The position numbers and the translations under genes are program-made. From Escherichia phage wV7: a DNA stretch of 64,000 nucleotides. The notes below the pieces were generated by a model, which did not search any database, was not told the origin of the DNA, and saw nothing but the letters and a program-made list of their open reading frames with translations. Of this stretch, positions 22,820 through 27,594 are shown piece after piece. The stretch lies in sequence record NC_019505.1. One strand, given 5' to 3'. Position 1 is the first letter of the stretch; each line of letters starts with the position of its first letter.

Positions 22820-22823
22820 CAAT

Positions 22824-22852
22824 GGGGACCGAAAGGTCCCCATATTTTTATT
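22824..22852 (+). terminator. Rho-independent terminator after gene 54
   Basis: GGGGACC-GAAA-GGTCCCC hairpin followed by ATATTTTTATTT. Confidence 0.7.
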
Positions 22853-23138
22853 TACGGAATGAAATAAAAGCAGCAACTGAAGCAACAGAGGTTTCTTCAA
22901 TATAAACCTCAATTTTTACCGGAGCTTCTGACTCAAATTTACCTGTTACTACACCTTGGAAAATACTTTCAGTCTGTTCTGGCTTTGAAAAATTTTCAGA
23001 AGGAAAAATTCCGAACTTTTTATCTGTTCCAAAAATTTTGATAAATTCATCGTAAACTGCTTCATTGAAAGCGTTATCAGCGGGAATAACGCCTTCAACG
23101 ACGAGTTCTTGACCTAAAAAGCGCAAAGAAGATTTCAT
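22848..23138 (-). CDS. Hypothetical protein (96 aa) downstream of the alt paralogs
   Basis: ATG start; intact ORF; no recognisable motif. Confidence 0.6.
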   Translation of the reverse strand: MKSSLRFLGQELVVEGVIPADNAFNEAVYDEFIKIFGTDKKFGIFPSENFSKPEQTESIFQGVVTGKFESEAPVKIEVYIEETSVASVAAFISFRK

Positions 23139-23198
23139 TTTGTGTTCCTCATGTTATGTCAGTAAGACTACTATAACACAACATGAGGGACTTGTAAA

Positions 23199-25256
23199 CT
23201 ACATTTTGAACTTTTTAGACATTCCGTTGATGTTAACCAAAGAAGCTAAGATTTGAGAAACTTCGTTTTCCTCTTCTTTTGATTCTTCTACAAGGAATTG
23301 ATTAAATCCAGCCATTGGACGAACTTCACCAGTTTCCATTAGATGGTCGCCATCATATACTGATTCTTCTAATTGTTCAGAAGGAGGAACGATTGTACCT
23401 TCGATTAGATACTTGTTATAAGCAGTTTCTTTCATAAAGTAAGTACTTACTTTATTAATCTTCAGTAAAATTCCACGTGGTAGAATAACTTCAGCTTCTG
23501 ATGGAAATCCTGACAAATGACCTGGAACGATAACTTTAACTCGTTCAGCTCCTTTAATTACCATACCCACGCTAGTTTCAGCATCTTCATTAGCATATGT
23601 AGAATGACTACCCATATGCATCAAATCTTCTGCATCAACGGAACCTTCTCCTTCACCAGAAAATACTGCTCCGGAATTATCTAAGGCCATATAATTTTTA
23701 CCATACTCACCAAAGATATTTGGTTTAAGTGATGTCGATACGAAGTTCTTGAAATAGAACATTTTATTTTCAATGTTATGACGCAAAGTTTTAAAAGTAA
23801 CTTCTTGTCCACGGTAAAGTGTAGTTCCTGGAGGAAGAACTGAACCTTTAGCGAATGCAGAATCCAGCGTCTCAATATGTTTAATAGCTCGTTCCATATA
23901 TTCTTCACGTGTAGAATCAGGTTTACCTAAAAGGAATGAGTTCATTTCAACATACGAATCTGCGCAATAATCTTCAATTACATCAGACTCAGCCTGAGTC
24001 AATCCTTTTGGAGTTACTTCAGTGCTTGCATATTCATACGCCTGAGCAGCGGATTCATCAATTAATTTATAAATGCCATTCATGACAAATTGAATAATAG
24101 CTGTCTTTTCATCTGGCGTAGCTTTAGAACCTTTAACTAAATCATTGACAATTTTCTTAATAACATCAAAGCTATTAGAAATATTAATGTCAGCAAGATC
24201 GCTTAAAATTTTATCAGTTTTATAATCAAAAAATTCTTTATTCTTTAAATATTCTTGAGAACTTTGATATGTTATATCGCTCTGCAACTTGATAGATGGA
24301 TCACGTAAACGTGCATGGGCTAATGCAATATGATTTCGGAAGCTTTCTAGTTCATAATCGTTAGATTTAAAACGAGAAGCACTTCTCATACCACCGATAG
24401 CTCCTTTGCTGAAGTTTGAACCAATCTGAATAACGCCAGAGTTCATTGGTCCTTCTGCTTTATATACCGGAACTTTAGATTCAAACTCTTGATATTTCTT
24501 AGCAGCGAAGCTATCACCCTGAAGTGAAGCATCAACAGTAGAATATTGAGCTTGTGCTGCTAATCGACGGCTAATTTTAGTTTTCTGAATAACAGCTTGA
24601 TCCGTACGCTTATCATTTTCTAAAGCAATAGAAGCAGCAACTGCGACAGCTTTAGGAACAGCATTACCTGTTTTAACGTCTACATAAACATCACCAACCT
24701 TTGATTCAACTTTTGTGAATAACTCAGTTGAAATAGGAGGTACACCTGGAATGTCTTCTAAATTGGCATTTTTACGGTAAACCATAATATATGCATATTT
24801 CTTATCATAGTCCCAGATTTCCTTTAAAAGAACATATCGACCTGCTCCTTTAGTACGTACTAAACGGTCAGCAATAACTTGCATTTGACGAGCAGCGCCG
24901 TTTGTTTTACTTTTTAGTACGCGGAATAGGCATGCATCAATTTTATACTGTTTCATTGTTTGAAGAGCAGTATCAAAAACCGCATTAATGACGCCAATTG
25001 GATTTCCACCCAAGTTTTTAAGCTTAACTAACGATAATTTCTCGTTGACGCCTATCATTACGATATGCATCATTTTGTCGCCTGGCTTAACGTTTTTATT
25101 CGTATCACCGCCAGAGGTGTATGTACAAAATCTAAATCCAGGAAGCACGCTTTCTTCACCGGCTTGAATAGCAAAAATTTGTGGTATTTTATGCTTAGGA
25201 TTTAAGTTAACAACCGGCGCCGAAGCGCCGTCAAATAATTCTGTAATAAGTTCCAT
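23199..25256 (-). CDS. Alt-like ADP-ribosyltransferase paralog (685 aa)
   Basis: N-terminal ~225 aa nearly identical to the upstream paralog; R-S-E ART motifs (YRGQ, FVSTSL, EAEVILPRG); start 3 nt after the upstream stop with AAGGA SD. Confidence 0.85.
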   Translation of the reverse strand: MELITELFDGASAPVVNLNPKHKIPQIFAIQAGEESVLPGFRFCTYTSGGDTNKNVKPGDKMMHIVMIGVNEKLSLVKLKNLGGNPIGVINAVFDTALQTMKQYKIDACLFRVLKSKTNGAARQMQVIADRLVRTKGAGRYVLLKEIWDYDKKYAYIMVYRKNANLEDIPGVPPISTELFTKVESKVGDVYVDVKTGNAVPKAVAVAASIALENDKRTDQAVIQKTKISRRLAAQAQYSTVDASLQGDSFAAKKYQEFESKVPVYKAEGPMNSGVIQIGSNFSKGAIGGMRSASRFKSNDYELESFRNHIALAHARLRDPSIKLQSDITYQSSQEYLKNKEFFDYKTDKILSDLADINISNSFDVIKKIVNDLVKGSKATPDEKTAIIQFVMNGIYKLIDESAAQAYEYASTEVTPKGLTQAESDVIEDYCADSYVEMNSFLLGKPDSTREEYMERAIKHIETLDSAFAKGSVLPPGTTLYRGQEVTFKTLRHNIENKMFYFKNFVSTSLKPNIFGEYGKNYMALDNSGAVFSGEGEGSVDAEDLMHMGSHSTYANEDAETSVGMVIKGAERVKVIVPGHLSGFPSEAEVILPRGILLKINKVSTYFMKETAYNKYLIEGTIVPPSEQLEESVYDGDHLMETGEVRPMAGFNQFLVEESKEEENEVSQILASLVNINGMSKKFKM

Positions 25257-25259
25257 GAT

Positions 25260-27353
25260 TTATCCTTGAACGAACTTGTAAGGCATGTTTGTAATATCTA
25301 TGCAAGACGCAATAATTCCAAGAGATGATTCTACTTTCTGTTTAACATTTGATGAAACAAATGATGCAAAGTCAACTCTGTCTTCTATTTCAATATCACC
25401 TGTCATTGCAACCAATTCACCAGTTTCCATTAAATGGTCTCCGTCATAGATTACCGATTCGGTGAGCTCTTCCGTGGTCATAACTTCAGCTTGAATGAGT
25501 TTTGTATTATTAGATGTTGTTCCGTCATTATTAGAAGCATCAGTTATTTTATTAACTTTGACCATCAATCCACGCGGTAGAATAACTTCAGCTTCTGTTG
25601 CTATTCCGAGACTTCCTGGATATACAACATTAACTTTATGAGCTCCATCAATTGCCCATCCTATTTGAACTTTAACGTATTCAGGATTTTCTTTATACGC
25701 TCTTATTTCGTTTGGATTAATAGTTATTCCTTCTTCATTTTTATCAACTGTTAATTCATTGCGAGCTTCTGGTTCTAAAAGACCAATACCAGCATGTGTG
25801 ATTCCAAAACGTCCAAAAATGATAGGAGTTAAAGAAGTAGATACAAAATTTCTGAAGTAGAACACTTTATTTTTAACTAACGCTTCATATATAGGAGCAG
25901 TCATACTTTGAGCACGATAAACTGTGATGCCTTCCGGTATGCGGTCACCATTTTCAAAAGCTGAATCTAAGTTATTTATAGCAGATTCAATTTCTTTTTC
26001 ACTCATTACATCATATCGTTCTGGATTGTAACGACCTAAAAGAAGATTATTGATGTCAGTATATCCTGAACCGCAATATTCTCTAATGCCACGCTTTTGT
26101 GATGGAGTATATTTAGAACCATCGCGGGCAATAGTAATATCAATCATTGGACCAGCACCAATTCCAGAAAAACTGTAAATCATTCGTTTGAGGAATTTAG
26201 TTTTTGCTGCGTTCCAGGAATTTTTAGTTATTTCTTCCCAGACTTCATCTGGTTGTCCTTTACGATTTTTATTATGATTAGCAAGCCATTTATCTTTATA
26301 ATCTTCAAAGAATTGATTTACAGCTGCTGCGTATTTCTCTAAACATTTTATTGAAGTAGTTGGTTCATTTTTAATTGCATTAAAAATTACTTCTTTAATT
26401 TTTTCTGAAACTTCACCGACTTGACTCATTGGAAAGAATTTATAATCATAGTGAAGTTCATCTGCCGTTCCTTCAGCAATAATTTTTGCTGCCTTTGTTT
26501 TAGAAGCTAATGAATTAATTCCAATTTTCATTTCTTCTGCTTCGGGAATTAAAGGTGCAGTAGCTGGTTTATTAAAATTAGCTGCTGTAGATTCATACTT
26601 CTGGAATAATTCACTTTCAAATCTAGAAGATTCCAATGACTGACTTTGTGCAATTGCTCTACGGGAAATTTTAACTTTAACGATTACGGCTTGGTCAGAA
26701 CGTTTATCATTTTCTTGTGCAATAGATGCAGCAATTGCCTCATTTTTGGTTACTTGAGCTCCAGTATCTTTATTGATATAAACATCACCGACCTTCGATT
26801 CAACTTTAGTAAAGAGCTCGGTGCTAATTTCTGGAACTCCTGGAATGTCTTCTAGTGATACATTTTTACGATGTATAAGAATATATGCATACTTTTTATC
26901 GTAATCCCAGAGTTCCTTAAGAAGGACGTATCTGCCACCTGAACGACTACGGATAAGTCTATCAGCAATAACTTGAATTTGTCGAGCTTGGCCAGCAGTT
27001 TTAGACTTAAGAATACGAAGCATACAAGCATCAATTTTATATTGACGCATTGTTTGCATTGCAACAGTAAAAACTGAATTGATATAATTAATTGGGCTTG
27101 GACCAAGACCTTTTAATTTAGCAATTGAACCTTTAGCAGTTAATGTAAAAGGAACAATGTGCATCATTTTGTCGCCCATTTTTAAATCGCGATTAGTATC
27201 ACCTCCAGATGTATATGTACATAAACGAAAGCCTGGTTGTTCAATTGCATCATCAACATGAACTGAAAAAATTTGTGGTATTTTCTTCTTTGGATTTAAG
27301 TTTGTAATCGGAAGAGTAGTATCTTCGTCAAATAATTCTGTAATAAGTTCCAT
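25260..27353 (-). CDS. alt: Alt ADP-ribosyltransferase (697-698 aa)
   Basis: MMELITELFDEDTTLPI... matches recalled T4 Alt N-terminus; R-S-E motifs (YRAQ, FVSTSL, EAEVILPRG); second ATG (27353) has better SD spacing. Confidence 0.85.
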   Translation of the reverse strand: MELITELFDEDTTLPITNLNPKKKIPQIFSVHVDDAIEQPGFRLCTYTSGGDTNRDLKMGDKMMHIVPFTLTAKGSIAKLKGLGPSPINYINSVFTVAMQTMRQYKIDACMLRILKSKTAGQARQIQVIADRLIRSRSGGRYVLLKELWDYDKKYAYILIHRKNVSLEDIPGVPEISTELFTKVESKVGDVYINKDTGAQVTKNEAIAASIAQENDKRSDQAVIVKVKISRRAIAQSQSLESSRFESELFQKYESTAANFNKPATAPLIPEAEEMKIGINSLASKTKAAKIIAEGTADELHYDYKFFPMSQVGEVSEKIKEVIFNAIKNEPTTSIKCLEKYAAAVNQFFEDYKDKWLANHNKNRKGQPDEVWEEITKNSWNAAKTKFLKRMIYSFSGIGAGPMIDITIARDGSKYTPSQKRGIREYCGSGYTDINNLLLGRYNPERYDVMSEKEIESAINNLDSAFENGDRIPEGITVYRAQSMTAPIYEALVKNKVFYFRNFVSTSLTPIIFGRFGITHAGIGLLEPEARNELTVDKNEEGITINPNEIRAYKENPEYVKVQIGWAIDGAHKVNVVYPGSLGIATEAEVILPRGLMVKVNKITDASNNDGTTSNNTKLIQAEVMTTEELTESVIYDGDHLMETGELVAMTGDIEIEDRVDFASFVSSNVKQKVESSLGIIASCIDITNMPYKFVQG

Positions 27354-27376
27354 CATAGCCTCTCTAGTGTTTATTC

Positions 27377-27384
27377 TATTTATA
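27377..27384 (-). promoter_or_regulatory. T4 late promoter box TATAAATA upstream of alt
   Basis: Reverse complement reads TATAAATA about 20 nt upstream of alt start. Confidence 0.5.
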
Positions 27385-27389
27385 AAATT

Positions 27390-27407
27390 AAAGGCCCGAA
27401 GGCCTTT
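27390..27407 (-). terminator. Hairpin after the 62-aa ORF, upstream of alt
   Basis: Transcribed strand AAAGGCC-TTCG-GGCCTTT followed by AATTTTAT. Confidence 0.5.
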
Positions 27408-27594
27408 AGTAATCTAGTGGTAAGAGAGTACGATATATTTCAAACTTTGGTCCTTTTTCATAGGCATCAAATGTTTCTGTAAATTTATTGTAAGCATATG
27501 CATCTACAAATTCGAGAATGACTTGTGATACAGAAGTAGAAACATCTCCACCTTCTTTTTGAGCAATGACAATTGTTTCTAAGTAAGCTTTCAT
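27406..27594 (-). CDS. Hypothetical protein (62 aa) between gene 30 and alt
   Basis: ATG overlaps ligase stop (ATGA); acidic small protein. Confidence 0.55.
   Translation of the reverse strand: MKAYLETIVIAQKEGGDVSTSVSQVILEFVDAYAYNKFTETFDAYEKGPKFEIYRTLLPLDY

Follow-up and report, generated by a model that had tools for sequence, protein, structure and literature searches.

The closest described relative of the genes discussed here is Alt of bacteriophage T4 (gpAlt, NP_049811; 682 aa). In T4, alt is a late gene (PMC9697503). Its product is a component of the prohead core, present in about 40 copies, and is trimmed by the gp21 prohead protease at L/I-x-E motifs (PMC9958956, PMC9026906). Mass spectrometry located the cleavages after ITE-6 and after LTE-619, the mature protein being 68.2 kDa (PMC5694885). 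The mass that we calculated for residues 7-619 is also 68.2 kDa, which confirms this mapping of the cleavage sites. RNA polymerase alpha and other host substrates are modified by T4 Alt, and the data concern T4 Alt only (PMC9958956, PMC5512222). T4 encodes other phage ADP-ribosyltransferases (ARTs) of the R-S-E clade, ModA and ModB, which act on host transcription and translation proteins; unlike Alt, they are described as early, unpackaged enzymes (PMC5512222, PMC9503650). Here we describe the alt locus of Escherichia phage wV7, contained in a stretch of 64,000 nucleotides (nt) from sequence record NC_019505.1. This whole stretch is called the window below, and all coordinates refer to it unless another sequence is named. 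The locus carries two complete genes in tandem, alt and a full-length paralog known as alt.-2.

The existence of alt paralogs is not new. They were already listed for T4-like phages by Nolan et al. in 2006 (PMC1524935), and a 2026 paper reported two paralogous Alt-like proteins, 43.29% identical, in the Tequatroviruses 6phi13 and SHFML-11, for which an expanded target range was proposed (PMC13600099). As a genome feature the pair changes nothing, being present in GenBank/RefSeq hundreds of times and remarked on in papers. What the present analysis adds is the origin of the T4 remnant, the conservation of both gp21 sites in the paralog and the purifying selection acting on it, together with the variable copy number of the array and the distinction between a lineage-bound N-domain and mobile ART cassettes.

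Two Alt-family genes in tandem

Two intact open reading frames (ORFs) lie on the minus strand within 23199-27356, encoding 698 aa and 685 aa from their first ATGs. The coordinates given in a preliminary description of the locus, 25260..27356 and 23199..25256, are confirmed, with one adjustment. The first ATG of the upstream gene, at 27356, gives the 698 aa of that description, and a second ATG, at 27353, gives 697 aa. Since the second ATG is the annotated alt start in T4, T2 and T6, and the published ITE-6 numbering starts there, we take the upstream product to be 697 aa. The upstream gene, an RB51/T2/T6-type allele of alt, is accordingly placed at 25260..27353, and the downstream gene, called alt.-2 in RB14, RB51 and T6, at 23199..25256 (685 aa; stop codons counted in both cases). 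Over its 4158 bp, the region matches Escherichia coli O157 typing phage 7 (KP869105, genus Tequatrovirus) with 100% identity; both ORFs are annotated there as 'ADP-ribosyltransferase exoenzyme'.

By position and alignment, the upstream gene is the ortholog of T4 alt. Both genes are found between alt.1/gene 30 and gene 54, behind the same late promoter, and both products carry ITE-6 and LTE sites. The upstream protein is 99.6% identical to T4 Alt over aa 1-236 and 97% identical in the C-tail, but its middle has been replaced, with identities of only 35% (helical part) and 65% (ART domain). About 420 nt of the upstream gene have no detectable DNA similarity to T4. This 'RB51-type' middle allele is present in approximately 350 phage records (at least 80% identity); its identity to the T4-type allele is about 49%. 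The downstream protein has the same architecture and motifs as T4 Alt, with an overall identity of only ~41-42%.

Judged by profile matches and aligned motifs, both genes encode Alt-family, arginine-specific (R-S-ExE) mono-ADP-ribosyltransferases in which every catalytic residue is kept. The Pfam profile PF03496 (ADPrib_exo_Tox; gathering threshold 23.4 bits) matches the upstream protein with 129.9 bits (E = 1e-37) and the downstream protein with 71.7 bits (E = 7e-20), and phrog_802 is matched end to end by both (1-697 and 1-685). Each protein shows the full Alt architecture, consisting of the N-domain (PF26846), a helical region, an ART domain with the fold of the R-S-E clade and a C-tail. 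The R-S-E motifs noticed previously in both proteins could all be located. In alt, they are YRAQ (aa 479-482; 25908-25919), STS (aa 505-507; 25833-25841) and EAEVILPRG (aa 587-595; 25569-25595). In alt.-2, they are YRGQ (aa 481-484; codon of R482 at 23811-23813), STS (aa 507-509; 23730-23738) and EAEVILPRG (aa 587-595; ExE at 23490-23498). The catalytic sets are in register: R480, S505-T-S507 and E587-A-E589 upstream, R482, S507-T-S509 and E587-A-E589 downstream. In an alignment of 17 homologs R482, S507, S509, E587 and E589 are invariant, so the idea of a copy degenerated through lost catalytic residues does not hold. Across 55 representatives of the whole family, the catalytic positions are at least 90% conserved.

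The two proteins can be aligned end to end with 41% identity (pairwise BLASTP, E = 1e-161), which excludes a chance resemblance. The N-terminal regions of about 236 aa are 68% identical (159/234) and the remainder 32%. The preliminary description had called these N-termini almost identical, which is too strong, as the only fully identical stretch is MELITELFD in protein and 27 nt in DNA. It was right about the divergence further downstream, with identities of 24% in the helical middle, 36% in the ART domain and 42% in the C-tail. The ADP-ribosylating turn-turn (ARTT) loop reads GSL-GIATEAE in alt and GHLSGFPSEAE in alt.-2, and an insert of about 70 aa between STS and ExE also differs. The notion of a shared N-terminal module joined to different catalytic domains has to be modified accordingly: the module with its variable effector is strengthened by comparison across genera (see below), but the two ARTs are homologous members of one family, 36% identical. 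A recent gene conversion of the N-termini was considered and rejected because blocks of 90 nt share only about 57-77% of their DNA sequence and no identical run exceeds 27 nt.

An AlphaFold2 model of the alt.-2 protein (mean predicted local distance difference test score, pLDDT, 76.9; predicted template modeling score 0.71) consists of an alpha/beta N-domain (residues 12-225), a helical part (230-470), an ART core (475-625) and a disordered tail (630-685; pLDDT <50 from residue 630). From this model and the alignments, the following parts can be placed on the minus strand: the N-terminal alpha/beta domain with the predicted gp21 site ITE-6 (aa 1-236; 24549..25256; AlphaFold2 pLDDT 90.2), the all-helical middle, which is the most divergent part (aa 237-470; 23847..24548), the ART catalytic core (aa 471-631; 23364..23846) and the predicted C-terminal propeptide after LEE-631 (aa 632-685 plus stop codon; 23199..23363). 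The corresponding N-terminal domain of alt, including its gp21 site ITE-6, is at 26646..27353 (aa 1-236).

A phmmer search of PDB sequences with the downstream protein gave no match at E <= 0.01, and no solved Alt structure was found there. The family profile, as opposed to the single sequence, reached C3, iota and Certhrax in the same database. The NCBIfam search returned no model matching either protein. The bacterial R-S-E toxins Vis, C3, iota/CPILE-a, Certhrax and VIP2 are only 14-26% identical to the Alt-type proteins here. Moreover, their delivery modules are different or absent, and the proteins here have no toxin-type translocation domain.

The two genes appear to be arranged for joint expression. 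A T4-type late promoter box, TATAAATA, matches exactly at 27377..27384 on the minus strand, where the preliminary description had put it. It is located directly 3′ of a hairpin and is followed by GAGAGG and ATGATG; the box and its immediate surroundings are the same in T4, T2 and T6. At the gene junction, the stop codon TAA (25260-25262) is followed by a 3-nt spacer, atc (25257-25259), and by the ATG at 25256. A Shine-Dalgarno sequence for alt.-2, AAGGA, lies within the last codons of alt (25263..25267, minus strand). Both the 3-nt distance and the separate Shine-Dalgarno sequence had been correctly noted before. The junction is identical in T2, T6 and T4. Such close spacing behind a single late promoter is compatible with co-expression of both genes.

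The T4 remnant and the distribution of alt.-2

As far as alignment can tell, the downstream gene is a full-length paralog of which T4 keeps only the fragments alt.-1 and alt.-2. These T4 ORFs (NP_049810 and NP_049809) align to the first ~116 codons of the downstream gene. The profiles phrog_23015 and phrog_15247, corresponding to alt.-1 and alt.-2, score 138 and 131 bits with the downstream protein versus 78 and 70 bits with the upstream protein. Two differences between T4 and the window are seen at the DNA level. First, a run of five A (25093..25097, minus strand) has only four in T4; the missing A shifts the frame and creates the stop of alt.-1. Second, T4 has a 1699-bp microhomology deletion between two copies of CTAAAAAGT. 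The first copy, the 5′ end-point of the deletion, is at 24909..24917 and the second, the 3′ end-point, at 23210..23218 (both on the minus strand). Both copies and the A5 run are intact in the window. The T4 record explains alt.-1/alt.-2 as a 'duplication of the first part' of alt; the comparison shows instead the remnant of a full-length gene.

The complete pair is common. T2 and T6 carry the same tandem genes (2094 and 2058 nt), the second of which is labeled 'alt.-2; also similar to alt' in the T6 record. RB14 and RB51 name the downstream gene alt.-2, and in RefSeq the two genes share the name 'Alt-like RNA polymerase ADP-ribosyltransferase'. The full-length alt.-2 proteins of RB14, RB51, T6 (AXN58232) and T2 (BBF63359), and their counterpart in 6phi13/SHFML-11, represent the same gene, are about 98% identical to the protein here and show no material difference from it. 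At least 80% of the 4.16-kb query is covered in 277 records; among the matches listed, the annotation is either two Alt-like ARTs or a single one together with a hypothetical protein. In a tblastn search, the downstream protein was found at full length and at least 80% identity in approximately 401 phage records. Of 498 records, only 91 contain a contiguous match to a probe centered on the junction of the T4 deletion, which means that about four fifths of Tequatrovirus-like genomes keep the complete pair and that T4 is exceptional. The pair in wV7 is therefore the complete version of the alt locus that is standard in Tequatrovirus. With T2, T6, RB14, RB51 and about 80% of Tequatrovirus records sharing it, the arrangement is ordinary, already annotated and already known, and not peculiar to this phage. 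The preliminary description had left open whether T4 has the same two genes: T4 has remnants only in place of the second, yet the arrangement is ordinary all the same.

Both genes look functional and are under purifying selection, which is strong on alt.-2. Between the window, T2 and T6, alt.-2 shows 50-70 synonymous and 9-13 non-synonymous differences. The ratio of non-synonymous to synonymous substitution rates (dN/dS) against T2 and T6 is 0.044-0.046 over the whole gene and 0.05-0.07 within the ART domain. The marks of a decayed duplicate are missing from the window copy, with its 685 codons uninterrupted, the A5 run and both copies of CTAAAAAGT intact and a dN/dS of ~0.045.

Modular evolution of the alt locus

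T4 is atypical at this locus: most of its relatives encode two Alt-type enzymes and Dhakaviruses encode three. At the same locus, the Dhakaviruses AnYang and WG01 carry three Alt-like genes in tandem, with the same architecture and with gaps of 3-8 nt (L005 4248-10508 for AnYang, L006 1012-7124 for WG01). Their arrays thus contain one paralog more than the array here, and their N-domains are genus-specific, 41-47% identical to those here. By gene content, the locus is an expanding and contracting tandem array: T4 has a remnant, most Tequatroviruses have two copies and Dhakaviruses three. Some of the Dhakavirus copies depart from the usual motifs. WG01_1 (631 aa) is without the conserved C-terminal motif YDGDHLMETGE, WRGQ replaces YRxQ in AnYang copy 2, and SAS replaces STS in the third Dhakavirus copies.

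Nine proteins from this phage, T4, AnYang and WG01 were compared domain by domain. The N-domains group by genus, with 68% identity between the two copies here, 61-93% among Dhakavirus copies and 41-47% across genera; in the orthologous pair AnY_1/WG01_2 they are 98% identical. In the helical and ART parts, by contrast, proteins cluster by type regardless of genus. For example, the ART domain of alt here is 96% identical in protein to those of AnYang copy 1 and WG01 copy 2, and the ART domain of alt.-2 is 59-60% identical to that of the third Dhakavirus copy versus 38% to that of the co-resident alt. At the DNA level, alt and AnYang copy 1 are 51-60% identical in the first 700 nt, 83-95% in nt 1200-1950 and 56% at the 3′ end. 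This pattern clearly marks a recombinational cassette.

The upstream gene is itself a mosaic in its middle (25470-26648, aa 237-628), with ends that are 97-100% as in T4 Alt and an ART cassette that is like that of Dhakavirus copies, whose flanks are only about 55% identical. The mosaic structure indicates an exchange of ART cassettes between genera. The opposite grouping of the N-domains and of the helical and ART parts fits two readings. In one, the N-domain evolves in step with a phage partner specific to the lineage, and effector cassettes are swapped. In the other, which may apply instead or in addition, the 5′ parts of the genes are homogenized within a genome. The conserved processing motifs and the genus-bound N-domain, set against a type-bound ART cassette, make a tidy example of modular effector evolution in the phage-host arms race.

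The N-domain seems to be confined almost entirely to Alt proteins. In a full HMMER scan of 1.84 billion representatives with a single N-domain query, it was found in only 69 clusters, always at the N-terminus and almost always in proteins of 600-712 aa; those tested carry PF03496. In precomputed annotation it corresponds to Pfam PF26846, and both PF26846 and PF03496 are precomputed on proteins 98% identical to those here. PF26846 also marks fragments consisting of the N-domain only. A search with a profile of the N-domain alignment retrieved 7 proteins, all of them truncated Alt proteins, and revealed no new architecture.

Three distant metagenomic proteins, P0183 (485 aa), P0184 (541 aa) and P0186 (221 aa), match the first ~140 residues of the N-domain. 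The matches are weak (E = 3e-8 to 2e-6), and the proteins have no Pfam ART domain. They may represent N-domains on other cargo or very divergent ARTs. In a Foldseek search of a viral structure library, the N-domain matches Alt proteins. Weaker matches (E = 1e-7 to 1e-4, template modeling score ~0.4-0.58) are to parts of large uncharacterized proteins of other big myoviruses, some of them annotated with zeta-toxin, deaminase or ParB/Srx domains. As a lead only, this hints that the N-domain fold might head other large phage proteins with unrelated effector domains.

Packaging, processing and possible targets

Comparison with T4 Alt provides some clues regarding the potential role of the alt.-2 protein. 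The gp21 motifs are aligned in both proteins here, the predicted sites being ITE-6 and LTE-632 upstream and ITE-6 and LEE-631 downstream. LEE-631 aligns with LTE-619 of T4; the sequence SV(I)YDGDHLMETGE, which is conserved, and an acidic tail come next. Among 55 diverse members of the family, the P1 glutamate of either site is conserved in at least 90%, and the AlphaFold2 model of alt.-2 becomes disordered directly after residue 630. The mature alt.-2 product is predicted to comprise residues 7-631 (69.2 kDa).

In our opinion the locus is quite probably best explained as the standard, complete alt locus whose two tandem Alt-family ARTs are both packaged and injected. Under this scheme, the two genes would be transcribed late as one mRNA and their translation would be coupled. 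The shared, lineage-specific N-terminal domain would direct both proteins into the prohead core, where gp21 would trim them after ITE-6 and after the L-x-E motif near residue 631. Both would be carried in the head and injected together with the DNA. In the new host, each enzyme would then ADP-ribosylate arginines on host proteins using NAD+. The host proteins modified by the two enzymes are probably different in part because the helical middle, the STS-ExE loop and the ARTT loop differ strongly. The alt.-2 protein is thus most likely a second arginine ART that is packaged in the head, is injected and has different substrates. For its packaging and injection we rely on the gp21 motifs, the shared N-domain and the location in a late transcription unit. 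The preliminary description had likewise suggested two packaged ARTs with different host targets, and the conserved gp21 cleavage motifs and the N-domain are consistent with that suggestion. The functional idea of different targets is reasonable and has already been voiced in print (PMC13600099).

Several observations weigh against this scheme. The short L/I-x-E motif is common, with 7 occurrences in the downstream protein, and its presence alone is weak evidence; the argument for packaging therefore rests on the positional alignment with the proven T4 sites. In the searchable literature we found no experiment or proteomics on the downstream protein, only descriptive mentions, so that packaging, cleavage, activity and targets of alt.-2 are all inferred. 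T4 thrives without alt.-2, which is likewise lost from about 18% of related genomes, so the gene is dispensable at least on laboratory hosts. Finally, no late promoter is present in the 5′ flank of alt.-2 itself, whose expression is predicted to depend on read-through, and the co-transcription of alt and alt.-2 is a proposal.

Among other explanations, the one that fares best is that both enzymes share their targets, for example Arg265 of RNA polymerase alpha, and that the duplication adds injected dose or robustness. The two proteins do belong to one family, have the same ExE arginine-type active site and form one expression unit, and one copy suffices for T4. However, the ART domains are only 36% identical and the helical regions only 24%, and both the ARTT loop and the ~70-aa insert between STS and ExE differ. 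Moreover, each ART type forms a distinct lineage across genera, a pattern expected of subfunctionalized paralogs. We therefore regard common targets as unlikely.

It is less probable still that alt.-2 encodes an active but unpackaged ART acting late in the producing cell, in the manner of ModA and ModB. T4 does possess such non-packaged ART paralogs (PMC5512222), and the packaging of alt.-2 is a prediction. However, alt.-2 has the Alt-specific N-terminal domain, which ModA and ModB are not known to carry. It also has the identical MELITE propeptide, the aligned C-terminal L-x-E site and the acidic tail, which make sense only for a protein of the prohead core, and it is located in the late transcription unit. 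ModA and ModB are also much smaller (about 200 aa) and are not known to have the Alt propeptides either.

One further explanation, in which the downstream gene is a duplicate that is redundant or decaying, contributes nothing and is on its way to the T4 state, would agree with the loss by frameshift and deletion in T4 and in 91 of 498 related records and with the non-essential nature of Alt itself in T4 (PMC9026906), but this is very improbable given an ORF of 685 codons intact in ~401 records, the low dN/dS of the window, T2 and T6 copies, the retention of all catalytic residues and both processing motifs, and an exact T4 junction in the 91 records that, phylogenetic tracing aside, is consistent with a single loss instead of repeated decay.

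Returning to two packaged and injected enzymes, a broader proposition may be made, which we consider tentative and somewhat less probable than not. In it, alt.-2 would be a second capsid-delivered effector with substrates of its own, which the usual model phage, T4, happens to have lost, and the N-domain would be a lineage-specific module for head targeting and ejection that serves ART cassettes exchanged by recombination between genera. The substrates of alt.-2 could possibly lie in a host defense or stress pathway. If alt.-2 is indeed an effector in its own right, decades of Alt biology would cover only half of the typical injected ART arsenal of T-even phages.

Neighboring genes and additional signals

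The flanking genes are T4-typical, with gene 54 and a homolog of alt.-3 on one side and alt.1 (27406-27594) and the DNA ligase gene 30 on the other. The leftward orientation behind a late promoter, between gene 30/alt.1 and alt.-3/gene 54, is that of the T4 Alt-family locus. The alt.-3 homolog (22848..23138, minus strand; 96 aa) was identified by phrog_1739 and by synteny with T4 alt.-3, and closes the leftward unit.

The late alt unit is flanked by two G+C-rich hairpins. The one at 27389..27408 (minus strand), followed by a T-run, is terminator-like and ends the gene 30/alt.1 unit. The other, at 22822..22843, was found in a terminator scan, as was the first, and is a bidirectional terminator common to alt.-3 on the minus strand and the convergent gene 54 on the plus strand.

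A second perfect match to TATAAATA is present inside alt (25973..25980, minus strand; codons A-I-N-N), 717 nt 5′ of the alt.-2 ATG. It is kept in T2 and T6, is absent from the T4-type allele and sits in a conserved coding stretch. By chance, about 9 copies of TATAAATA are expected per 64 kb when both strands are counted, which is not negligible. The match may represent an internal late promoter or a chance occurrence, and chance is plausible.

Between the alt.-2 stop and the alt.-3 start there is a match to an early-type promoter (23198..23170, minus strand), consisting of TTTACA, a 17-nt spacer and TATAGT with TG upstream. A very stable hairpin in the region 23146-23198 (-23.4 kcal/mol, z = -4.7) overlaps this match; its 3′ arm includes the alt.-3 Shine-Dalgarno sequence GAGG. 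On a read-through late transcript, the hairpin would mask the ribosome-binding site of alt.-3. A transcript from the early promoter would start inside the hairpin and leave this site free. Such a masked site resembles the temporal translational control of T4.

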